DNA of 64,000 nucleotides from Candidatus Latescibacterota bacterium (GTDB taxonomy: Bacteria; Latescibacterota; UBA2968), in assembly GCA_965222605.1 (NCBI GenBank), contig OZ244960.1:2240001-2304000 (forward strand). The letters run 5' to 3'. Positions 29,510 through 39,190 of this stretch are shown in pieces. The position numbers and the translations under genes were made by a program. The notes under the pieces were generated by a model. The model worked only from the letters and a program-made list of their open reading frames with translations, made no database searches and was not told the origin of the DNA. How positions within the stretch are numbered: position 1 is the stretch's first letter; every line of letters begins with the position of its first letter.

Positions 29510-30493
29510 TTACAGCGAGCCGGAAAAGCTCAGACGGATCGGGGCATCGAAATATTTGCCGAAGTTGGAGTAGGCGATGTCCAGCCGAATATTTCGACCT
29601 GAGAAGGTGCCCTTCAGCCCTGCGCCGACAGTCCACGATTCTGCATCGTAGTCAAACTTATAGCCAGCGCGCAGCGCGACGATATTCTTCAACCACAACT
29701 CGCCGCCCAGATTATAGCGCTGGTCGCGGTCGGTGAAGTAAGCCCCCTCGAAGGAGGCGGTTAGCGACACTGGGTCGCCCAACTCGCCGATGAACTCCAT
29801 CGAGGTGCCCAGATTGAACACCACCGGGAATTCCGCGGGGTCGCTGTGGATCTTCATCTCGTTGCCCAGGTTGTTGATGCCCATGCCGATGCGGAGGCTG
29901 CGGTAGCCAGTGTGCAGCAGCGTGTAGAGGCTCAGCGAGGTCCCCCCCAGCTTTTCCGGGCCAAGATTGGACTGGACGAATGAGAACTTGGCGGCCGCAG
30001 AGAGCTTGTCGGTCAACTGACGGGCAAAAATCACACCCAAGGCGTAGTCGCCTACATCCAGCATTTCTCCTGTGCCATCGGGCTCCAGGATGGTGGTCCG
30101 TTCGATCTCTGGAGGTTGGTGGCTAACCACGGAAATGCCCAGCATAGCGTTCCACCCGACATTGAGGGCAACAGCGCCAGAGTAGAACTCGGAGTCCACC
30201 AGCCACTGCGCGTATCCAAAGGAATAACCCAACCGCCGCACCGAGGTGATACCGGCCGGATTCAAATAGATCGCATCCATGCCCTCAGCAACAGAGGTAT
30301 AGGCGTCGCCCATCGCCGCAATACGGGCACTTGGTGTGACCTTCAGGAAGGCGAGCGTGCTCGGTCCTTGCTTTTCAAAAGCTCCGGTAACCTTGTCATT
30401 AAACAGGTGCGGCACATCCAGATCTTGCTGTGCCTCCGCTCCCAGCGTGCCGCAGACGGCAATCGCGATCGCAAAGAAGAGAATTCTTTTCAT
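29510..30493 (-). CDS. PorV/PorQ (UPF0164) family outer-membrane beta-barrel
   Basis: Signal peptide; AFLKVTPSARIAAMGDAY..A...AIYLNPAG signature; LRAGY; alternating beta strands. Confidence 0.85.
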   Translation of the reverse strand: MKRILFFAIAIAVCGTLGAEAQQDLDVPHLFNDKVTGAFEKQGPSTLAFLKVTPSARIAAMGDAYTSVAEGMDAIYLNPAGITSVRRLGYSFGYAQWLVDSEFYSGAVALNVGWNAMLGISVVSHQPPEIERTTILEPDGTGEMLDVGDYALGVIFARQLTDKLSAAAKFSFVQSNLGPEKLGGTSLSLYTLLHTGYRSLRIGMGINNLGNEMKIHSDPAEFPVVFNLGTSMEFIGELGDPVSLTASFEGAYFTDRDQRYNLGGELWLKNIVALRAGYKFDYDAESWTVGAGLKGTFSGRNIRLDIAYSNFGKYFDAPIRLSFSGSL

Positions 30494-30521
30494 AGTTGAA
30501 ACCATCCTTTATTTAAAACAG

Positions 30522-32882
30522 CTACTTGTGCAGGATAAAGGCTCCTCGAGACAGCTTGCCCATGCTCTCCTGTACTTCGGATTCCACGACAAAATAGTAC
30601 AGTCCGGAAATGACTTCTCCACTGAGGAACCGGTCCTTTAACTCCCAATTGGTCTCGCCGAGAAGCGGGTTGTCGTGTTTGATTATCGCTACCATATCGC
30701 CCGATACCGAAAAGATGCGGATCGTACACTTGTGGGGTAATCCCACAAACCGCAGGCTCTCGGCGCCCTGGTAACTCTGGCCGTCCAGAGTTACACTGAA
30801 CGGGTTGGGCACCACTCGCACCTGCCGCTCCAGGTTGTCGCTCATTATGCTACTGGCCATCTTCGGGCGCAGCGGCACATTGACCTTTGTCTCTGGCGCG
30901 GAGTAGCCGCCCTCCAGTCCGCTCACGGTGAGGTGTTCCCGGACTTTCGGAGGCAGATCGGCCAGCGTCACTGACCCTTCGCTCCAGTCCTGCTTGGGAG
31001 AAGCAACGGCGCGGACGTTGTAGATGTAGCGGAAGCCCGCCAGGGAATTGGTATCTACATACCTATACGTTCCAGCACCTGTGGCCGGGACCTCTTCCAC
31101 CAGGTCCCAAGGGCCGTATTCCTGGAAGGTAGATCGGTAGATCCGGTAGGCCACAATGTCGGCCTCCCCATATTCGGGGTTGATTACCTTTTCCGCGGCG
31201 TCGGTCCACGAGAGCTCGATGTTGGCATCTCGGTTATTCCCCGCCTGGAAGTCCACGTCCGGTGGGGCGTTGGGGATGCGTAAGCCACTGTCGTATGCGA
31301 ACTGGGCGTGCGATAGGTTTTGCAGGAGGGCCTTTTCACCCTGGGCGAGCACCTGCTTGCGGGCATCGTCATTCAGACCCCTTTCCCCCACCCCGAATGC
31401 CCAGCTCATCTGGTCCCTTGCAAAACCGGTCCTGGAATCGACGTTGCTCTCTTCTATGTCCCCTGCGTGGCCAAAGACGTAGGTGACCACGATCTTGGCC
31501 TTATCTCCGGGCGCCAGGTCGTAAGGACCGTAGATCTGGTCGGACCAGACGACCCCCTCTGCAGGAGGATCGGCCATTGAGGGAGCCGTGTAAATGTCGT
31601 AGAGTTCGGCCATACCTACGCCCTTGCCGATGGGGTCGTCGATATTATCAAGCCCGTGTGCCCTGAACCAATGCCCCAGAACCTGGTCGCTCCTCGGCTC
31701 CACATAGCCTTGCGCCAGATCGTTCGCGTTAAAGACGTGGCTGGGGCCGGAATTGCGAAACGCCAGGGGGGCAAATCCGGCGTATTCCGGCGCGATCGGT
31801 GTGCCCTTTGGCCGGTCTCCGCTGGCTGGGAAGGAACCACCGGGATTTTCAAGGTCGGGATCAAATGGATCTCCTGTGTCATCCTCAAAGCTATTGGTGG
31901 TATTCCCATCATATACATAGGTGATGTATTTGCCGGAAAAGTCCGCAGCGGTCAGGCCGCTGAGAGAATTGGGCTGAAAGCCGGGAGAGCCCGAGAAACG
32001 GAAGAAATCGTCTAGCCCACCCGACCTGTTGTATCGGATCATCCCCCCTTCGTGCCCCCATCGGTAGGAGGTACCAGTGGAGTTGACGTAGAGGGTGTTG
32101 TTGAAGCCGAAGTAGGTGTCGTTGAGCTGTTTGTCGCCCCGGTTTTCGAACTCGATATCCACGATAATGAAGTCGTCGAAGTCCTGGTGGCTCCAGGCGT
32201 ATATCTTGCGCGTCATCACGATGTTGTGCTTGAACCGCGTCTGCGTGATGTGAATCTCCTCAGGCGCGTCCTGCACGGGTGGATAGATATGGAAGTCGTA
32301 ATTGTGAATCTCGTAGGGGTCGGCAGCCGTGGCATCGCCCGACTTGGGCGTTGCGCCGGGATACCAGTTGGACATGCCCAGGCCGACCTTGATCCCCCTG
32401 GGGGGTACGACCGTGCGGATGCCCCAATTGGCCTCCGGGCCGTTCAGGATGTCGTAGATCATCGGGAACACATCCTCCGAGGGGTGGCGCGGACCGGTCC
32501 ATGAGACGTGCTTCTCTCCATCCACGTTCGTGAGCACCAGCACCCCATTGCCGGATGAGTGCATGGTGCCTTCGGACTTGTTCGCACCGTCGGACCAGGC
32601 CTTGTCACCCCAGTATTCCATGTAATCGGTAGGGTTCATCAGGGTGTAAAACCCCATCATCATGCCGGGGTAGATCAGACGGAATGCAGCCCGGCCCGCG
32701 CTGTCGGCATAGTGCATGCCGGAAAACCCGTAGTTGTGAAAGGTCTCCCAGACAAGCGAGCGGGTCATCATGCGGCTGGCGTAGTAATCGAGCTGGGCCG
32801 AAGCGGTCAGGGCGCCCGACAGCAGCAACGCCAGCGCCAGCAGGCCCACCCCAAGCCATTTCTTTATTAGAGATACAGACAT
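30522..32882 (-). CDS. Secreted protein with FN3-like domain and T9SS type-A-like/FlgD-Ig C-terminal domain
   Basis: Signal peptide; ELSW..YRIYRS..Y.YVD FN3 pattern; C-terminal VRVVPNPF..LRFVGLP..CTIRIFSVSGDMV..W...SGLYYFVVE. Confidence 0.78.
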   Translation of the reverse strand: MSVSLIKKWLGVGLLALALLLSGALTASAQLDYYASRMMTRSLVWETFHNYGFSGMHYADSAGRAAFRLIYPGMMMGFYTLMNPTDYMEYWGDKAWSDGANKSEGTMHSSGNGVLVLTNVDGEKHVSWTGPRHPSEDVFPMIYDILNGPEANWGIRTVVPPRGIKVGLGMSNWYPGATPKSGDATAADPYEIHNYDFHIYPPVQDAPEEIHITQTRFKHNIVMTRKIYAWSHQDFDDFIIVDIEFENRGDKQLNDTYFGFNNTLYVNSTGTSYRWGHEGGMIRYNRSGGLDDFFRFSGSPGFQPNSLSGLTAADFSGKYITYVYDGNTTNSFEDDTGDPFDPDLENPGGSFPASGDRPKGTPIAPEYAGFAPLAFRNSGPSHVFNANDLAQGYVEPRSDQVLGHWFRAHGLDNIDDPIGKGVGMAELYDIYTAPSMADPPAEGVVWSDQIYGPYDLAPGDKAKIVVTYVFGHAGDIEESNVDSRTGFARDQMSWAFGVGERGLNDDARKQVLAQGEKALLQNLSHAQFAYDSGLRIPNAPPDVDFQAGNNRDANIELSWTDAAEKVINPEYGEADIVAYRIYRSTFQEYGPWDLVEEVPATGAGTYRYVDTNSLAGFRYIYNVRAVASPKQDWSEGSVTLADLPPKVREHLTVSGLEGGYSAPETKVNVPLRPKMASSIMSDNLERQVRVVPNPFSVTLDGQSYQGAESLRFVGLPHKCTIRIFSVSGDMVAIIKHDNPLLGETNWELKDRFLSGEVISGLYYFVVESEVQESMGKLSRGAFILHK

Positions 32883-32909: not shown

Positions 32910-35900
32910 TCAAAACTTCAGGCGTGCGCCGACCACCCAGTTGCGGGGATATCGCCCCAGTCCCCGGTCGTAACGGTCTATATCGCCATCCCCATCCTTC
33001 AAGTAGGTGCCGTTGTCCGGGTCTGGCATCTGCTTCCCCCACTGTATCCAATCGAAACCGGTAGTCATGTCGGCCTTGTCGTTCCAGAGGTTGCGGATCT
33101 CCAGGAAAGCGGTGGCTGTCATAGCGCCGCCAATGTAGAATTCCCTCTCCAGGTTGATATCGCTGACCAGAGAGATCGGCCCGGTCCGTCGCTCCCGGGG
33201 ACCTGTGGGAGGCGTATAATTGAAGGGAATGCCGGTATGGAGCCGATAGAGCAACGATATCCGGAGACTGGCCAGAGGCGCAATGTGAAAGTCAGAGGGA
33301 CTGGAGAAGAGAAATTGCCCGCTGAGGATATTGCGCCGGTCGATACCGCTCTGCAGTGTCGGCGTATTGTATCGGCCAATGGTATAGGCATAAATTCCGG
33401 GCTCGAGTATCTCCACCGGGGCATTCCAGTAGCCATCGGACAGAGGCTCGCCGATTCGGCTATCGTAATCCTTGAGTTGTGCCCTGGCCCTTTCGGCCAG
33501 TTGCACCCGCTCCTCCTGGGTAGGCGCATGGGGGACCTCCTGTCCGTCCGCCCGCGCATCCACACCCACGAAGTATTCGTCACTCATGACGTATGAGGGA
33601 CCGACCACGTGGTAGGCTCGCCAATTGCGGAAGCCGGAGTTATTCATATTTTTCGTCCACGCGAGGTTGTACGCTACGTTGAACGTGACCATGTTGCTGA
33701 ACTGCTTCCGCAGAGAGACCTCGAACCCCCGGGACCACTTCCGACCCCGGTTGCCGGATCCTCTCGAAGAGACGCCGTCGTACCCGAAAGCCGGTTCCTC
33801 CAGGCGCCAGGAGGTGGAGCCGTTGGTGATAATCCCCATCTGATCCCTGTAAAAGGCGGTGACGCTGGCAACGTATTCGCCGGCGAAGTTCCAGTCAAAC
33901 CCGGCCTCGAAACTGGTTGATTTTTCCGGCTCGATGTCGGACATCCCGGAGACCCCGTGGTGGATCTGCTTCAGGCTATTGTACTTCTCCATCTGATCGA
34001 TCTGTCCGTTCCCGTTCACGTCCCTGTCCTCTCCGGTCCCGCCGAATTCCCGCTGGTAAAAATTCTGGATATCGGGAAATTGTCGGAAGACACCCGTGAA
34101 GAACCGGATGGTGGAGCGATCAGTGATGGGATGAGAGACCCCGATCCGTGGACTCCAGGCGTGCAAAATCGGAAGGTCTTCGGTTACGGGCATGTTTCGA
34201 AAGCGCGTCAGGGATTCGTAGTGTCTGAACATCCAGAGGGTGGCGATGTTGCGCCAGCCCTTTACCGGGTCCATCGCGTCGAACCGGATACCGGCGTTGA
34301 TCACCAGGCCCTCAAACTCCATCTTGTCCTGGATATAGACCCCGTACTGGATGGGATGAGCCCGTTCCATGCCGATAATCGGGTCGCCCGAACCGCCGGC
34401 AAGGCGGATTGTAAAAGCGCGGGCCTGGCGGGAGCCCTCCTCGTGGTGGTAGAGGCCGTAGCGAGTGATCTCAAACCCGGTTTTGACGAAGTGCCCCTTG
34501 GTGACCTGGCTGCTCAGATCGGCTTTGAGGCGCACCCGCTTGTTATCCATATACTTAAAGGAATAGATGTCCCTCGGCAGGAAGTACCCCTTGCTATCGC
34601 GCCGCACGCCTTCGGTCGCAGAAGGCACGCCACTGGTGTCGGTCAGAGTTTGCTGCCAGTTGAGGCGCACTTCATAGAAGGTCGTGGGGGATAGGGTGTG
34701 GGTAAAGAGGAGATACGCCATCCTTTCGCTGAAGTTCTGTTTGCCCGCTGCGGAGTAACCCTCGGGCAGGAAGAGGTTGCGCCCACCCCTGGTGATACCC
34801 CGCACGCCCCCGTCGGTATCTCGCTGCTGCCCGGCGAAGGGATCATCGGGATCGATCCTCGTGTTGGACCCTCCAATTCGCCTGCTGCCCCTGGTCCCGG
34901 GGTCAAAGCCCTCGTAGTAGGCGAACACCCCGCCCAACTTCACCTTGAAGTTGGGGGACGGCCGGGCGACGAAGTTGCCGAAGGTCTGGATGTTAAATGG
35001 CTCTCGGTTGAGCGCGCTGGGATAGATGGGGGCCTTGCGACTGTGGGCCGCATTCATAAAGAAGGAGACATCCCTGGCGATCGGTCCAGAGGCCGAACCC
35101 TCCAAATAGTGTCCGAACACACCCGTGTAGTCGGTGCGTTCATGCACCTTGCGCCCGGTCTCGGGATCGGTCTCGTTCGCAAAGGCAGGGTCATTCCAAT
35201 CCACCTTGCCTGCGTGAAAGGGGTGATCGTAGATGTTCGGTCCCCAGTGCCTCTTGGCCGGCAGGTCCAGGCGGTACTCCCCAAAACCCGTATAGGCGTC
35301 CCGGCCCTCTTTGGTGACCAGGCTGATCACGCCGGCCTGGGCGTTGCCGTACTCGGCCTCCATCCCACCGGTGACCACCTGCACCTCCTGCAGGGCGCTT
35401 TTGTTGATGCCCATCCAGTTGGGGGCAACAAATCCGTCGTTGTTGACGAGCCGAACCCCGTCAATCTCCACAAAGGTATCGTTTGAGCCAGCCATAGACG
35501 CATTGTTGCTGCCCCGGATGCGGAGGTTGCCGTCCAGCGACACGCCCGGCTGTAGCGCGATCACCTCATTGAGGGTGCGCGCAAGAGGCACGTTCTCGAG
35601 GTCCTCGGCATCGACGACATAACGGCTGAAGGTCCGATCCGGCTCCACTGGTGGTCGCTCGGCAATCACCACCAGCTCTTCGGCCTGTAGCGCGGCCTCC
35701 GCCAGGTTAAAATCGACGGTGGTGGTGAAGTCTGCCCGCACGGCCACATCCTGTTTGGTCGCCGCGGTATAACCGACCATCGAGGCTTCCAGTTTATACC
35801 TGCCAGGTTCGACCGACAGGATGAGAAAATAGCCTTCTGCATCGGTCGTAGCACCCCTGCGGGTGCCCTGGATCACCACGTTGGCCCCGGGCAACGGCGC

Positions 35901-36020
35901 ACCTGAGGCGTCGGCCACAACACCGTTGAGTTTGCCGACTATCCCGGCCGGTACATCTGTGGGCGAGAAGGCGACCAGCACCCCGACCAGCAACAGGCAA
36001 AAATTATAAAGGTATTTCAT
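32910..36020 (-). CDS. TonB-dependent receptor-like outer-membrane protein with carboxypeptidase-regulatory-like N-domain
   Basis: Signal peptide; PLPGANVVI..T..GATTDAEG; plug LQPGV..IRG..TGGMEAEYGNAQAGVISLVTKEG; YIQDKMEFEGLVINAGIRFD; SPRIGVSHPI; C-terminal Phe. Confidence 0.9.
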   Translation of the reverse strand: MKYLYNFCLLLVGVLVAFSPTDVPAGIVGKLNGVVADASGAPLPGANVVIQGTRRGATTDAEGYFLILSVEPGRYKLEASMVGYTAATKQDVAVRADFTTTVDFNLAEAALQAEELVVIAERPPVEPDRTFSRYVVDAEDLENVPLARTLNEVIALQPGVSLDGNLRIRGSNNASMAGSNDTFVEIDGVRLVNNDGFVAPNWMGINKSALQEVQVVTGGMEAEYGNAQAGVISLVTKEGRDAYTGFGEYRLDLPAKRHWGPNIYDHPFHAGKVDWNDPAFANETDPETGRKVHERTDYTGVFGHYLEGSASGPIARDVSFFMNAAHSRKAPIYPSALNREPFNIQTFGNFVARPSPNFKVKLGGVFAYYEGFDPGTRGSRRIGGSNTRIDPDDPFAGQQRDTDGGVRGITRGGRNLFLPEGYSAAGKQNFSERMAYLLFTHTLSPTTFYEVRLNWQQTLTDTSGVPSATEGVRRDSKGYFLPRDIYSFKYMDNKRVRLKADLSSQVTKGHFVKTGFEITRYGLYHHEEGSRQARAFTIRLAGGSGDPIIGMERAHPIQYGVYIQDKMEFEGLVINAGIRFDAMDPVKGWRNIATLWMFRHYESLTRFRNMPVTEDLPILHAWSPRIGVSHPITDRSTIRFFTGVFRQFPDIQNFYQREFGGTGEDRDVNGNGQIDQMEKYNSLKQIHHGVSGMSDIEPEKSTSFEAGFDWNFAGEYVASVTAFYRDQMGIITNGSTSWRLEEPAFGYDGVSSRGSGNRGRKWSRGFEVSLRKQFSNMVTFNVAYNLAWTKNMNNSGFRNWRAYHVVGPSYVMSDEYFVGVDARADGQEVPHAPTQEERVQLAERARAQLKDYDSRIGEPLSDGYWNAPVEILEPGIYAYTIGRYNTPTLQSGIDRRNILSGQFLFSSPSDFHIAPLASLRISLLYRLHTGIPFNYTPPTGPRERRTGPISLVSDINLEREFYIGGAMTATAFLEIRNLWNDKADMTTGFDWIQWGKQMPDPDNGTYLKDGDGDIDRYDRGLGRYPRNWVVGARLKF

Positions 36021-36079: not shown

Positions 36080-36793
36080 CTACTGCTGGGTATAGAACTT
36101 AAACCGCACACCGACGTTGAGCTTCTGGAAGGGGAAGACCTCTTCCATTCCCCAGGCCTCCAGCGGACGCACACTGCCCAACACAATGTTATACTGCCCT
36201 CTCAAGTCGATGGCCAGAGATTGGGAGGTGAAAAACTGCACGCCCAACCCTACATTGAGCCCCAGTGTCATGTGCTGGTCGGCCGTAGGTTCCAGCAGCA
36301 GATTCTCGTTCAGAGGCGGCGCGGGCTGACCGGGCCAGATCAAGCCACTGACCTCGTTCTTATACCGAAAAGACCCCGTGCCCACCACCAGATAGGGCGC
36401 CCTCCCCCCGCCTTTTGACAGCTTCCCACCCCCCTGATTGAAATGATACAGCCAGCTAATCGTCCCGCCCGTCCAGGTCATCTTCGAACTGGCCTGGGGG
36501 CTGGCATACTCCTGCTTGTCGATCGACCAGAGAAATCTCCGGTTCTCCAGTTCCCCGCCGCTGTATTTGACGTAATGTCCCTCCACTTCGGCGGTCCACC
36601 GCTCGTTGAGGACGTAGAGCACCGTCCCACCGAGATTGATACCACCGGAGGGAAACCATTCGTTTAATTTGAAGGTCGGCAGATCGTAGCTGGCAGCGAC
36701 GCCAAAGCCCCACGTCCCACCAACTTGCGCAGCGGCACCAAAGGGCCAGGCCAGCAGCAAGACCCCCACTAAGAGCAACATCCTATATCTCAT
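36080..36793 (-). CDS. Outer-membrane beta-barrel protein (OmpW/OmpA-membrane-like)
   Basis: Signal peptide MRYRMLLLVGVLLLAWPFGAAA behind AAGGAGG; amphipathic strands PYLVVGTG, GLNVGLGVQFF, NVGVRFKF. Confidence 0.78.
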   Translation of the reverse strand: MRYRMLLLVGVLLLAWPFGAAAQVGGTWGFGVAASYDLPTFKLNEWFPSGGINLGGTVLYVLNERWTAEVEGHYVKYSGGELENRRFLWSIDKQEYASPQASSKMTWTGGTISWLYHFNQGGGKLSKGGGRAPYLVVGTGSFRYKNEVSGLIWPGQPAPPLNENLLLEPTADQHMTLGLNVGLGVQFFTSQSLAIDLRGQYNIVLGSVRPLEAWGMEEVFPFQKLNVGVRFKFYTQQ

Positions 36794-36922
36794 AGTTCCT
36801 CCTTTTTTGAGACCTTCAATCCCCTCGAAAACCACCCAAAATACTATTAGATCTTCCCGCGCTTTACCTCCTTTCAACAGGCATAACAGTTTACCAAATA
36901 GCACTTTAATAAGAGATTTAGT

Positions 36923-36952
36923 TTGACAATAAAAAACAACCCGTTTTACTTT
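36923..36952 (+). promoter_or_regulatory. Sigma70-like promoter firing antisense to the TBDR operon leader
   Basis: TTGACA(36923-28)-N18-TACTTT(36947-52). Confidence 0.55.
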
Positions 36953-36957
36953 TTGGC

Positions 36958-37053
36958 TTGGATATGCGAGGAGGTGACAACGCCTCTTTATATATCTCCG
37001 AAGCCGTTAGCTCCAGTCTCGCCAAAGGTCGGTAGCTAACGGCTCTTTTTTTT
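36958..37053 (+). ncRNA. Candidate ~95-nt cis-antisense small RNA
   Basis: Lies between a plus-strand promoter and a plus-strand intrinsic terminator. It has two predicted stem-loops, the first containing AGGAGGTG, and no convincing ORF. Confidence 0.5.
37002..37053 (+). terminator. Rho-independent terminator on the plus strand
   Basis: AGCCGTTAGCT / AGCTAACGGCT 11-bp perfect stem followed by C and T8. Confidence 0.75.
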
Positions 37054-37122
37054 GGCCAGCTTGAACTCTCCCCATACACCGATCTGATGGTGCCCAGCAG
37101 TTCATCAGAACGATCTTGAGAA

Positions 37123-37151
37123 AAGATAAACCGTAAAAATTCCTGTGTCAA
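37123..37151 (-). promoter_or_regulatory. Sigma70-like promoter of the barrel-TBDR-CTD-PorV operon
   Basis: Minus strand TTGACA-N17-TATCTT. Confidence 0.6.
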
Positions 37152-37198
37152 GTTATTAGTCCAAGTAAACATGCCCTTCGTCAATATAGAGTGCATAT

Positions 37199-39190
37199 TC
37201 ACCAACTATGCACGCCATGTCCTTGTCCGGGGAACCAGACCGCGTCTATGAGGAAACACCAGACGACCCCAAACGTGTAGCCGATCAGCAGACCCAAAAA
37301 CAGGGGCATGGCCCGGCGGTAAAGGGCCACACCTCCAACGCGCATCAGGATCGCCTTGCAGACCCAGGCGAAGAAGACCGGGATGACGATGGACTTAGAG
37401 TTGTCCGAGGCGGATATGGCCAGACCGATGGGATGGATCGACCACCAGGCGAACCGATACCTCAGGAAGGTGAGCAGACCCATCAGAGCCGCGCCAATGC
37501 CAAAGAAGATCATCCGGTCCAGGGCCATTGGCTTGGGTGTCCTCATATGCGACAAGGTAGAGGAGAAGACATTCTTGGGGTTCCCTTTGTAGTAGAACGC
37601 AAAGTTGTAGGCCCCGTGGATATATCCCAGATAAAGCGTAAGCCAGACCGAGGCGACAAGCCCGACCAATGCACCGACCACTACCCAGAACACCAGCATG
37701 CGTCGGTTTCTACGAACCAGGTCGCCCAGCTTGACGGCCTGCGCCAGCCCCGGAGCGAACAGGCCCCGGATATAGTCGATCAACGAATAGGAAAGGAGCA
37801 TAGAGGTGAGGGTGGACCCTGTCATCACGTCGGTCCCCCGCATGTCCATCGCAAAGGCCTGTGCGGTGATGGGGGCCTGCGTGGTGACCAAGCCGGTCTC
37901 GGAGACGATTCGGGCCATCCCGATGTAAATGATTCCCGTGCTGGCCAGGAAAACCAGCGCCGTGAGGAGGTCCATGCCGGATTGATGGATCAGAAACAGG
38001 ATATACAACAGGCTCAGAAACAGGCCCAAAACCGATGTGCGGTAAGAGAGGATCTCCTGGCGGTCGTCGGCTGGATAACGGGAATTGAGAGCCTTCAAAA
38101 AGACATCCCTCAGGTGGTGCCGGGCCACCCAAAGCCGCCAGAGAACCAGGCTGGCCATCGCGCCAAAACACTGCCAGGACTGAATCGCCTGATCGGCGGT
38201 GAAGGAATCCGAGGGTTGTTCGAGTTGCAAACCCATGCGGTTGATGATGTGCCCTTCCACCACGTGAATCAGGAAGAAGAACCAGACGCTGAAGAGGACC
38301 TCCAGGTTGGCGAAGTAGGCAAAGCCGAGCGTGTAGAACTGCAAAGGGCGGATCCGCAGAGACGGCGAGTAGCGCGTAAATTGGAAGTAGCCCCCGGAAG
38401 GGATGAGGGCGATATCGGGGACGGCGGGGAAAAACCAGGAGAGGGATTTCCAGAAGAAGAGTCCAAACGCCAGAAGGGCCGCAACCCAGAAGAGCTTGCT
38501 CCGCATCAAGGTCGGCCAGAGGCGCTCCGAATCGGCGTCCCGGGCCAATTCAGTGGGTATGGAGACCAGTGGGTACACGAGTTTCTCGTGCTCGACCCAC
38601 TGCTTTCGAAGGATGACCATCACACACGCCGTCCCGACCAGGATAGCCGCGATGAGGCTGCCCCACCACACCAGCGGGACCAGCCAGACCCTCCAGGGAG
38701 CCTGTGCGCCCGCAGGCAACCCCTCGTAGAACATCCTCAGGGCCTCGCGGTCAGTGGGCACCATCCAGGCGCTGAGGTGGGGGTGATAGAATTCGGCCCA
38801 CTGGTTTTCGGGGGTGGCAAAGTAGAACGGGGAGGTGATGATGCCCAGGAAAAAGCCGGTAATGCCGGAGCCAGGAACAACCGACCCGACAATGCCGATG
38901 GCCACGACTGTCAAAAGCTCCGAGGGGGAAAAGGCAAGCCGCTGCCGACAGAGCTTGAGCAGAGGATTGAGGAACCCCACCAGGAGGAAGAAGAGGGCCA
39001 GGAGCGGAAGCTGAAAGTAGGCCAGATTGAGCCGGGTGGACTTGACGACCGCTTCGGCATAAGTCACCCAGAGGTTGGTGAAGATCACAATGGAGAGTCC
39101 CAGAGCGACTGCCCGGAATGTGACCCCACGCTCCGAGGATGGACTGGCCCGCGTTTCGGGCCGTGGAGTGGCAATTACATTCTCAGACAC
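37199..39190 (-). CDS. DUF6785/DUF6784-like polytopic membrane protein (paralog 2)
   Basis: GVTFRAVALG, YFATPENQW, RKQWVEHEKLVYPLV, WWSIHPIG, GGVALYRRAMPLFLGL, GHGVHSW; AAGGAGG RBS with GTG start. Confidence 0.78.
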   Translation of the reverse strand: MSENVIATPRPETRASPSSERGVTFRAVALGLSIVIFTNLWVTYAEAVVKSTRLNLAYFQLPLLALFFLLVGFLNPLLKLCRQRLAFSPSELLTVVAIGIVGSVVPGSGITGFFLGIITSPFYFATPENQWAEFYHPHLSAWMVPTDREALRMFYEGLPAGAQAPWRVWLVPLVWWGSLIAAILVGTACVMVILRKQWVEHEKLVYPLVSIPTELARDADSERLWPTLMRSKLFWVAALLAFGLFFWKSLSWFFPAVPDIALIPSGGYFQFTRYSPSLRIRPLQFYTLGFAYFANLEVLFSVWFFFLIHVVEGHIINRMGLQLEQPSDSFTADQAIQSWQCFGAMASLVLWRLWVARHHLRDVFLKALNSRYPADDRQEILSYRTSVLGLFLSLLYILFLIHQSGMDLLTALVFLASTGIIYIGMARIVSETGLVTTQAPITAQAFAMDMRGTDVMTGSTLTSMLLSYSLIDYIRGLFAPGLAQAVKLGDLVRRNRRMLVFWVVVGALVGLVASVWLTLYLGYIHGAYNFAFYYKGNPKNVFSSTLSHMRTPKPMALDRMIFFGIGAALMGLLTFLRYRFAWWSIHPIGLAISASDNSKSIVIPVFFAWVCKAILMRVGGVALYRRAMPLFLGLLIGYTFGVVWCFLIDAVWFPGQGHGVHSW

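Follow-up and report, generated by a model that had tools for sequence, protein, structure and literature searches.

Does the spacer at the head of this outer-membrane transporter operon encode a regulatory RNA on the strand opposite to the operon, and if so, how might such an RNA act? The window that we analyzed is a stretch of 64,000 nucleotides on contig OZ244960.1 of an uncultured, sponge-associated Latescibacterota bacterium. In it, the spacer is bounded on the upstream side by a gene for a DUF6785/DUF6784 membrane protein (37199..39190, minus strand; E 3.5e-119). On the downstream side lies a two-gene cassette, also on the minus strand, whose first gene codes for an outer-membrane protein (OMP) beta-barrel of 237 aa (36080..36793; Pfam OMP_b-brl at E 2e-05, below the curated cut-off) and whose second gene codes for a TonB-dependent-receptor (TBDR)-like protein of 1036 aa with CarboxypepD_reg plus Plug domains (32910..36020). 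The initial annotation had spoken of a TBDR operon; the operon stands, but it is led by the OMP gene, with the TBDR-like gene coming second.

Set between these minus-strand genes, positions 36959-37053 of the plus strand hold a genuine predicted small RNA gene with its own promoter and two hairpins, of which the 5' one is variable and the terminator one conserved. The RNA would be about 95 nt long, its 5' end being placed from the -10 element and its 3' end being the T8 run. The sigma70-like promoter (36923..36952, plus strand), recognized from the sequence, the orthologs and the family copies described below, consists of TTGACA (36923-36928) and TACTTT (36947-36952) separated by an 18-nt spacer. 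Hairpin 1 (36960..36997, plus strand), seen both in the single-sequence fold and with RNAalifold, pairs GAGGAGG with CCUCUU and is particular to this paralog type; the motif AGGAGGTG is located at 36969-36976. Hairpin 2 (37002..37053, plus strand) is an intrinsic terminator and the signature of the family: its perfect 11-bp stem is formed by AGCCGTTAGCT (37002-37012) and AGCTAACGGCT (37034-37044), is lengthened by a 2-bp extension and is followed by T8 at 37046-37053. The loop carries the conserved motif CUCGCCAAAG (37018..37027, plus strand), for which the family consensus reads yCyCGCC(A)AAGkU. The promoters, terminator, motif and AAGGAGG sites listed in the initial annotation were all found where it had placed them.

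Simple scans do not by themselves lift this locus above chance, as 1.3 promoter-like and 3.9 terminator-like sites would be expected and 2 of each were found. The plus-strand promoter was missed by the promoter scan because its -10 matches at only 3/6 positions; this weak element is also variable among the orthologs and reads TTTTTT in one of them, with TTGACA being invariant in 7/7. What raises the RNA gene above chance is its fold, conservation and covariation. The plus-strand RNA has a minimum free energy of -39.4 kcal/mol (z -5.58), and none of 200 shuffled sequences folds as well. The whole spacer is kept in 6 genomes of the same genus, and RNAalifold on 6 orthologs predicts 32 pairs. Thus, the proposal of a plus-strand small RNA with its own promoter and terminator in this spacer is borne out: the promoter, stems and terminator are all conserved, and upstream of the orthologous operons, where their conservation had been suggested as a check, both promoter and stems are kept. 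The sponge RNA libraries X6 and X7 have no contig over 36959-37053, which is uninformative, since contigs are not expected from so short an RNA.

We found this gene to be a member of a multi-copy RNA family, previously undescribed and confined to one class of Latescibacterota. In its own genome the terminator hairpin was detected six times at E <= 2e-6, the best remaining match having E 0.03, and the hairpin is present in 34/151 Latescibacterota genomes searched. The loop motif CUCGCCAAAG is common to paralogs whose 5' hairpins are mutually unrelated, and the AGGAGG element occurs only in this paralog type, none of the other five copies having it. This membership in a family tied to OMP-TBDR cassettes was overlooked in the initial annotation. 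An Rfam search, which it had proposed, matched no known family: with Rfam 15 the window gives 0 matches at the gathering threshold, the best sub-threshold scores around the site (19.1 bits where 60 are required and 13 where 88.5 are required) are at chance level, and nine paralog loci give 0 matches at E <= 0.1. A tRNA and tmRNA search of the window likewise found none. We rejected a REP or MITE-like repeat as the identity of the hairpin: the copies number only 6, every one comes with its own promoter and a cassette, and terminal repeats are absent.

The substitutions in this family identify the plus strand as the functional RNA, a conclusion based on covariation, G-U excess, the T-run and fixed-distance promoters. 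Covariation among homologs, suggested earlier as a check, is indeed evident as compensatory changes in the terminator stem and in the type B RNA, one of the paralog types. In the terminator stem, 97.9% of cells are paired across 29 sequences and 8/10 pairs have changed on both sides, a level reached by 0/500 shuffles, and slid controls are 10-56% paired. The type B RNA has 29 pairs in 12 sequences, of which 8 have changed on both sides (0/500 shuffles match this), and its 5' hairpin shows compensatory changes in 6/13 pairs. The alternative that the functional element lies on the mRNA strand, with the complement of hairpin 2 forming a leader stem-loop that acts as a stabilizer or a regulator-binding site and the plus-strand signals arising as by-products, must be weighed here. 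Read on the minus strand, the region retains a stable fold (-31.7 kcal/mol, z -3.31), and at the type B loci an ECF-like motif beyond the terminator, GGAACATT-N16-GTCAAAT, would start the mRNA right at the hairpin. However, the terminator hairpin alignment has 23 G-U against 4 A-C on the plus strand, and the 23 G-U are therefore 23 mismatches on the minus strand. In the same way, several plus-strand G-U pairs of hairpin 1 would be A-C mismatches on the other strand, where most of the pairing in hairpin 1 of this copy is lost. Moreover, the T-run is found on the plus strand only, there being no U-run after the hairpin on the minus strand, and 19/29 family copies have a promoter match of at least 9/12 at a fixed distance upstream of the hairpin, as compared with 3/29, 1/29 and 0/29 in three control windows; the conservation of these TTGACA promoters and of the T-run on the plus strand makes a function of the mRNA strand very unlikely.

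The family is closely linked to transporter cassettes. There are 22 OMP paralogs in the genome, and all six of its RNA copies lie upstream of, and opposite to, an OMP paralog of an OMP-TBDR cassette. Across genomes, 27/38 hairpin matches are upstream of an OMP paralog, and of the further matches, all five tested (5/5) are directly upstream of a TBDR gene with CarboxypepD_reg plus Plug. The OMPs of the RNA-bearing paralogous cassettes are only 35-56% identical. The neighbor beyond the terminator varies (xylose-isomerase-like, GntR/FCD, LacI or DUF6785); therefore, the RNA travels with the cassette. The unit is always flanked by the cassette on one side and by an upstream same-strand gene on the other. 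Often it lies 0-70 nt past the stop codon of that gene, and the gene itself lacks a terminator acting in its direction of transcription. Such an arrangement could point to an insulator that works by transcription only, in which the promoter-terminator unit and the hairpin as a road-block would stop read-through from the far-side gene, often a regulator gene, or compete with the cassette promoter, and the RNA product would have no job. We consider this improbable: mere interference needs neither the compensatory changes in the type B 5' hairpin nor the conserved loop sequence, and an ordinary bidirectional terminator would insulate more simply.

The family also bears on whether the locus might encode a small protein or the antitoxin RNA of a type I toxin-antitoxin system. 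The latter idea came from an impression of the loop in the initial annotation, to which can be added a 23-codon ATG frame starting at 36965. This frame has no Shine-Dalgarno (SD) sequence and is shifted by a 1-nt indel in the loop of the orthologs. A 95-aa ORF on the minus strand (36918-37205) has no Pfam match and is crossed by ortholog deletions of 74 nt and 9-10 nt, and the other five RNA copies share no ORF. Thus, no ORF is conserved on either strand, the only candidate frames are crossed by indels that are not multiples of three, and a search for an overlapping or adjacent small hydrophobic toxin ORF found none. Both versions are scarcely credible.

How the RNA might act depends on where transcription of the operon begins. 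A sigma70-like promoter on the minus strand, TTGACA-N17-TATCTT (37123..37151), matches at 10/12 positions in the scan and probably drives the operon. Starting near 37116, as predicted, the mRNA would have a 5' leader of about 322 nt (36794..37116, minus strand), antisense through the whole RNA gene. The minus-strand promoter (37151-37123) is invariant in 7/7 orthologous spacers, and the adjacent segment 37054-37115 is deleted in one ortholog (G020) and partly deleted in two others (G004 and G015). Since the promoter is invariant and the DNA beside it deletable, the overlapping leader of about 320 nt drawn in the initial annotation is plausible for this copy. Elsewhere in the family the picture is mixed: all four type A loci tested (4/4) have a far-side minus-strand promoter, and over all loci a sigma70-like minus-strand promoter occurs within 250 nt beyond the terminator in only 8/28. 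Most other copies have only 0-70 nt between the hairpin and the end of the far-side gene, so that an overlap would need read-through, a promoter inside the far-side gene or a non-sigma70 promoter. Thus, as judged from sequence, the invariant promoter makes the overlap plausible in this copy, and in most other copies it is only possible.

Other candidate starts fare less well. Minus-strand promoters between the RNA gene and the OMP start were seen at 6/25 loci, in scattered positions with none consistent. A nearer operon promoter, TGGTAAACT at about 36895-36903, is not favored, being altered in G014 and G011 and deleted in G020, and a promoter on the other strand overlapping the RNA promoter was rejected, as its would-be -10 is not conserved among type B loci. 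The contigs from the RNA libraries, being assemblies, give no information on strand or ends and may include DNA; in 2/4 runs, such contigs connect the OMP gene with the RNA region. One 14,096-nt contig over the operon (X5) ends at 37100, near the predicted start, which is weak evidence for it; another (X1) continues into the upstream gene to 38326, and two more end before reaching the RNA gene, at 36941 and 36793.

We favor, with about even confidence, the reading that the small RNA regulates the operon leader in cis as an antisense RNA, in the manner of the DonS RNAs of Bacteroides polysaccharide-utilization loci (PULs). Operon transcription from the promoter at 37151-37123 would produce, in this copy, a leader of about 320 nt crossing the whole RNA gene, and the small RNA would therefore be fully complementary to that leader. 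The RNA would then be a brake on the cassette by two routes. In one, polymerases from the face-to-face promoters would collide; in the other, pairing of RNA and leader, begun loop against loop, would lead to cleavage or destabilization of the leader upstream of a stabilizing SD-like element. The cassette would be kept low unless the operon promoter were strongly induced, and the family members would probably tune the amount of each transporter made. Transcription of both strands, their overlap and a repressive effect are what we infer for this locus, and the direction of regulation is a guess by analogy. A search of the genome, which is 98.68% complete, found no Hfq, ProQ or RRM_1 (PF00076) protein; this fits a regulator relying on long perfect complementarity.

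The SD-like element at issue is GAAAGGAGG in the leader (36867..36875, minus strand; CCTCCTT on the plus strand at 36867-36873), which is followed by no start codon and is complementary to the 16S 3' end GGAUCACCUCCUUUCU. The real ribosome-binding site of the OMP gene is AAGGAGG at 36804-36798, with the ATG at 36793-36791 (36791..36804 together, minus strand). Of 21 OMP paralog genes, 14 have a comparable second SD-like element at a distance of 79-157 nt upstream. The stabilizing SD (STAB-SD) sequence of the cry3A leader of Bacillus thuringiensis, which we take to read GAAAGGAGG, is the same as that at 36867-36875; this likeness concerns the leader element rather than the RNA, and the stabilizing role is only putative here, no protein of the genome scoring over the family cut-off for RNase J. 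The initial annotation had envisaged a switch in which the small RNA releases a fold that sequesters the SD. This idea did not hold up: in the predicted fold of a 347-nt leader, CACCUCCUC pairs with GAGGGGA near 36825-36831 and not with the real SD, and shuffled sequences are about as stable as the whole leader (z -0.48). The absence of the AGGAGG element from the other five copies weakens it further. An 8-nt match of UAUAUCUC in hairpin 1 to OMP codons 2-4 was set aside as chance; by eye it is not kept in the orthologs.

One aspect of the family sits less easily with a purely cis-antisense RNA, which needs no shared partner: the conservation of loop and stem among divergent paralogs points to a shared partner in trans. 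The copies might accordingly be read as trans-acting siblings, in which the shared loop CUCGCCAAAG and stem form a seed or protein-binding site; in a possible variant, the RNA of each cassette cross-represses the other OMP-TBDR cassettes, as FopS does with SusC mRNAs and MicF with ompF. The position beside a cassette would then only couple expression of the RNA to that cassette. Loop and stem have kept their sequence even though the 5' hairpins are unrelated and the OMPs are so divergent, many loops are C/U-rich, 20/28 copies have no predicted operon promoter beyond the terminator, and a precedent exists in FopS (PMC11697453). Furthermore, the type F loop is predicted to form a duplex of -32.6 kcal/mol with the part of the cassette E TBDR gene that codes for the signal peptide, and the 8-bp core of this duplex is kept in G019 despite amino-acid changes.

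Genome-wide target searches, which used crude duplex energies on crude gene calls and could miss a real target, gave this reading little further encouragement: the loop is predicted to pair no better with the start regions of 21 OMP genes than with 1500 other crude gene starts, and for 21 TBDR starts against 500 gene starts the Mann-Whitney p values for the six loops range from 0.03 to 0.66, none robust. A shift of the TBDR-start pairing relative to random genomic windows is gone when the comparison is with the 500 gene-start windows. The genome has 26 sites for the 10-mer complement CTTTGGCGAG, 9 on one strand and 17 on the other; three of these sites are the opposite strands of the RNA genes themselves (copies A, B and C), and the other 23, judged by eye and not from gene calls, appear to lie inside ORFs and not at gene starts. 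Likewise, 7-mers of the loop complement are not enriched around OMP starts, where they have 6 non-self matches, the background mean being 5.3. It would be unusual for a seed to be placed in the loop of a terminator, and the chaperone search described above is a further point against action in trans. We thus regard trans-acting siblings as a possible but unlikely account of the family. Equally tentative, as a proposal of its own, is a network in which loop and stem serve as a shared handle, the site of an unknown RNA-binding protein or a common seed, to rank about 21 nutrient-uptake cassettes against each other through cross-regulation: each RNA would serve both as an antisense RNA to its own leader and as a trans regulator of the others, making up a PUL-priority circuit without Hfq, ProQ or RRM proteins in a phylum that is still uncultured.

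If the cis-antisense reading is true, gut Bacteroides are not alone in having antisense RNA control at the heads of SusC-type transporter operons; this mode of control would extend more widely across the FCB superphylum, the present case coming from sponge-associated glycan degraders. A full-text literature search for Latescibacter together with sRNA found no paper on regulatory RNAs of Latescibacterota. The family signature, a 45-nt hairpin with 6 copies per genome and clear orthologs, offers a compact and testable handle, which can be used to find RNA-controlled transporter cassettes in metagenomes and to ask how about 21 parallel uptake cassettes are prioritized in a genome in which Hfq, ProQ and RRM_1 were not found.

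Three known systems invite comparison. MicF of enterobacteria adjoins ompC without overlapping it, pairs imperfectly with the ompF mRNA and needs Hfq. The likeness lies in the layout, as a small RNA gene adjoins an outer-membrane protein gene and is transcribed away from it; the differences are that neither Hfq nor a trans target was found here. The FopS/GibS RNAs of Bacteroides thetaiotaomicron are likewise multi-copy paralogs with a shared conserved segment, and they control SusC-like transporter operons; FopS uses a 5' seed, acts in trans on start regions and is bound by the RRM protein RbpB (PMC11697453). The conserved segment in the present family is the 3' terminator loop instead of a 5' seed, the 5' parts are unrelated, RRM_1 (PF00076) has 0 matches and pairing with start regions is not enriched.

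The closest resemblance in size and layout is to the DonS family of Bacteroides fragilis and B. thetaiotaomicron, members of a genus that falls in the same FCB superphylum as the Latescibacteria (PMC4454575). DonS-type RNAs are 78-128 nt long, are encoded divergently or antisense to susC homologs at the head of operons opened by such a transporter gene, repress PULs and occur in several copies per genome, one per locus, each repressing its own locus (PMC7366714, PMC13750123). The present RNA, with a predicted length of about 95 nt and its own promoter and terminator, lies within the size class of roughly 80-130 nt, precedes on the opposite strand an operon that contains a SusC-type TBDR gene and has 6 copies in its genome; the comparison, drawn from the published description of DonS, is one of size and layout, to which overlap and repression here would be added only by inference. 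The present family differs in belonging to another phylum, in its sigma70-type promoters and in that the cassette usually starts with a small OMP and not with the TBDR; it is further distinguished by the conserved terminator hairpin and loop that its copies share.

The spacer at 36794-37198 is flanked by two minus-strand genes, one coding for a DUF6785/DUF6784 membrane protein (37199-39190; Pfam E-value 3.5e-119) and the other for a 237-aa OMP beta-barrel protein (36080-36793). The latter is followed on the same strand by a TBDR-like gene (32910-36020; 1036 aa, with CarboxypepD_reg and Plug domains) and two further genes with no Pfam match (30522-32882 and 29510-30505), with gaps of 16-59 nt separating the OMP gene and the three genes after it. 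All the elements described in the initial annotation were recovered in this spacer: a plus-strand promoter (TTGACA at 36923-36928, an 18-nt spacer and TACTTT at 36947-36952), AGGAGGTG on the same strand (36969-36976), a perfect 11-bp stem (37002-37012 with 37034-37044) followed by T8 (37046-37053), two minus-strand AAGGAGG sites before the OMP gene, and the minus-strand promoter TTGACA-N17-TATCTT (37151-37123). In the minus-strand reading, A8 precedes the hairpin and no U-run follows it; hence, the hairpin is predicted to be a one-way terminator for the plus strand. The candidate RNA (36959-37053, its 5' end placed from the position of the -10) is predicted to form two hairpins (-39.4 kcal/mol, z -5.58; none of 200 shuffles as stable), and its minus-strand version folds more weakly (-31.7 kcal/mol, z -3.31). 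Simple promoter and terminator scans, taken alone, gave counts not above chance.

Besides this site, the hairpin part matched one further locus in the same genome and, in many relatives, a conserved locus. These type B loci, as distinct from the type A copy described here, have an OMP paralog of 230 aa on the other strand and a TTGACA-N17-TAAAGT promoter; their 5' hairpin differs from that of type A and their terminator hairpin is the same, with the loop CUCGCCAAAG and a T-run. A covariance model built on this hairpin, R1, detected six copies in the genome (A-F; E <= 2e-6, 39-76 bits), the next match scoring 23.9 bits among the 150 of 3771 candidates scored. Across the phylum, 34 of 151 genomes had matches, distributed over four families (24/29, 3/19, 5/64 and 1/2 genomes), and the ten further families that were sampled had none; this search used strict filters, and copy numbers in the other genomes are therefore lower bounds. 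The Rfam search proposed in the initial annotation matched the RNA to no family. Two loci of another genus (L065 1501-1548, L067 1501-1545) carry the family loop (CCCCGCCAAAG) on a covarying stem; there the hairpin forms the end of a protein-coding gene, not of a small RNA. Upstream of several OMP paralogs that lack an R1-type RNA, 215-335 nt from the OMP start, are terminator-like hairpins in plus orientation; these hairpins might represent diverged RNAs. Two paralogs (upstream of G000:C1:3490499 and 3502525) share a block, catgttaata..caaattaaggcgggtcaatcaaaaacg, before a weak hairpin with a T-run; this may represent another small RNA, or else an operator.

Covariation, which the initial annotation had suggested examining, was evident in both sets of sequences examined. 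Among 12 type B sequences, 94.5% of cells in the 29 predicted pairs were paired, with two-sided, compensatory changes at 8 pairs versus 2.2 in shuffles; in 29 diverse copies of the terminator stem the corresponding values were 97.9% and 8 of 10 pairs. In neither case did any of 500 shuffles have as many, a count that overstates significance since the sequences are related; slid controls of the terminator stem, which are unaffected by this, were 10-56% paired. Over 33 distinct sequences the plus-strand stem has 329 Watson-Crick, 23 G-U and 4 A-C pairs, and the 23 G-U pairs would therefore be mismatches on the minus strand. A sigma70-like promoter (at least 9 of 12 matches, with 38-55 nt between the end of the -10 and the model start) precedes 19 of 29 copies, versus 3, 1 and 0 of 29 in three control windows. 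No conserved ORF was found in the RNA region. Together, these sequence features make it very likely that a plus-strand RNA of ~95 nt is made.

The genome encodes 22 OMP paralogs, 21 of which are followed within ~1.2 kb by a Plug-domain gene; one paralog lies at G000:C1:2239239-2239913, and positions 1-400 of the window are its upstream region. Each of the six RNA copies is found upstream of an OMP paralog that is followed by a Plug gene, on the strand opposite to the paralog (in copy D a GFO/IDH/MocA oxidoreductase gene intervenes between RNA and paralog), and only these six of the ~21 OMP-plus-TBDR pairs have an R1-type RNA. Across genomes we counted 38 forward matches from 39 loci, having dropped 11 of 49 matches (seven weak opposite-strand echoes, two weak second matches in L056 and two on the palindrome of L064). 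An OMP paralog occupies the upstream-opposite position in 27 of the 38, at 186-336 nt from hairpin to OMP N-terminus in 24 and ~1.4 kb in three; because many of the 38 matches are orthologs the counts are interdependent, and the kinds that can be told apart are A-F and about eight from other genera. As for the other 11 matches, all five tested lie directly upstream of a CarboxypepD_reg and Plug gene, and L058 is by eye an ortholog of one of these; L056, L063 and L066 adjoin other genes, L065 and L067 are the coding-gene terminators and L061 sits at the end of a contig. Beyond the terminator, the neighboring gene differs between loci (DUF6785, xylose-isomerase-like TIM barrel, GntR/FCD, LacI or GntR-like fragments only), which argues that the RNA belongs to the cassette. 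Beyond copies C (G000:C1 ~6044440-6044760) and F (~2170710-2170880) there are only broken or short GntR-like fragments, and in copy D this place is taken by an intact GntR/FCD regulator gene.

Among 20 same-genus genomes (41 genomes searched overall), six retain the whole spacer, at 81-91% identity. In an alignment of seven spacers, almost no variation is seen in the RNA gene or in the region of the minus-strand promoter. The segment between them (37054-37115) is absent in one relative, G020, and partly absent in G004 and G015; in the leader, 59 nt at 36837-36897 are replaced by ~100 nt of other sequence in G019 and by 163 nt in contigs of two RNA libraries (joint 36837 to 36897). An inverted repeat, GATCTGATG...CATCAGAaCGATC (37078-37115), forms the 5'-terminal hairpin of the leader fold at the predicted leader start; one arm is lost in G004 and G015 and the entire repeat in G020.

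The operon mRNA probably overlaps the RNA gene in this copy, judging from the promoter layout. The minus-strand promoter at 37151-37123 is invariant in all seven orthologs though the adjoining DNA is deletable, and such a promoter lies beyond the terminator in 4 of 4 type A loci tested. A nearer candidate operon promoter (TGGTAAACT, ~36895) is altered or absent in three orthologs and is not favored. Among contigs from RNA libraries (partly labelled sponge metagenome), X5 (14,096 nt) covers the operon and ends at 37100, X1 continues to 38326, X7 stops at 36941 and X6 at 36793; because such contigs reveal neither the strand nor where transcripts really end, and may include DNA, they offer a weak hint of overlap. 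Across the family, the 250 nt past the terminator contain a sigma70-like minus-strand promoter at only 8 of 28 loci, versus 2 of 28 on the control strand, and one lies between RNA gene and cassette at only 6 of 25, at scattered positions. Type B loci retain a minus-strand GGAACATT-N16-GTCAAAT directly past the terminator (L002 1553-1585 and orthologs), also found in the diverged L016 with a different spacer and neighbor gene; it would start the leader at the hairpin. We take it to resemble an ECF-sigma promoter.

The leader also contains a second long SD-like element, GAAAGGAGG(U) (36867-36875, minus strand), which is not followed by a start codon. Complementary to the 16S 3' end GGAUCACCUCCUUUCU, it recurs upstream of 14 of 21 OMP paralog genes in the genome, at distances of 79-157 nt; in types B and F, and in two further genera, it directly adjoins the RNA's -35 on the other strand. 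Type B leaders (L002 ~1325-1345 and orthologs) keep a mini-ORF between this element and the real start, comprising an SD, ~5 nt and ATG-NNN-TGA (M-I/T/L-stop). The SD-like element resembles the STAB-SD mRNA stabilizer of the cry3A leader.

We consider the chances about even that the RNA is a cis-antisense brake on the OMP-TBDR operon: transcription from the two promoters would run face to face, lowering operon output, and the RNA would pair with the operon leader. The release of a sequestered SD, suggested earlier, is not borne out: CACCUCCUC pairs elsewhere in the predicted leader fold, the leader taken whole shows no unusual stability (z -0.48) and the AGGAGG hairpin occurs only in type A. 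The main fact that the cis reading leaves unexplained is the conservation of loop and stem sequence across old paralogs, which would not be required of an antisense RNA acting purely in cis; we therefore keep in view a trans role, with loop and stem as a shared seed or protein handle, while regarding it as unlikely. Crude target searches, with gene starts from crude ORF calls as background, gave the seed no support. One lead is a predicted 22-bp duplex (-32.6 kcal/mol) between the loop and upper stem of RNA F (G000:C1:2170907-2170957) and the TBDR signal-peptide region of cassette E, ~101-125 nt past the OMP stop codon (620088); its 8-bp core is kept in G019 despite a differing peptide, and the predicted pairing may be due to chance. 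No Hfq, ProQ or RRM_1 was found in the genome; RNase E/G is present and nothing scored above the cut-off for RNase J.

A full-text search on sRNAs in Latescibacter gave a single paper on an unrelated subject, and a broader search yielded nothing relevant among the 10 records listed. The family shares its multi-copy nature with the FopS sRNAs of Bacteroides and departs from their defining 5' seed and RRM partner. It cannot be filed under either DonS or FopS: the FopS-defining features are lacking, and the likeness to DonS is one of proposed function. In that respect it is most like the DonS-type PUL antisense RNAs, and the DonS family of Bacteroides is the nearest precedent for a cis-antisense brake of this kind.
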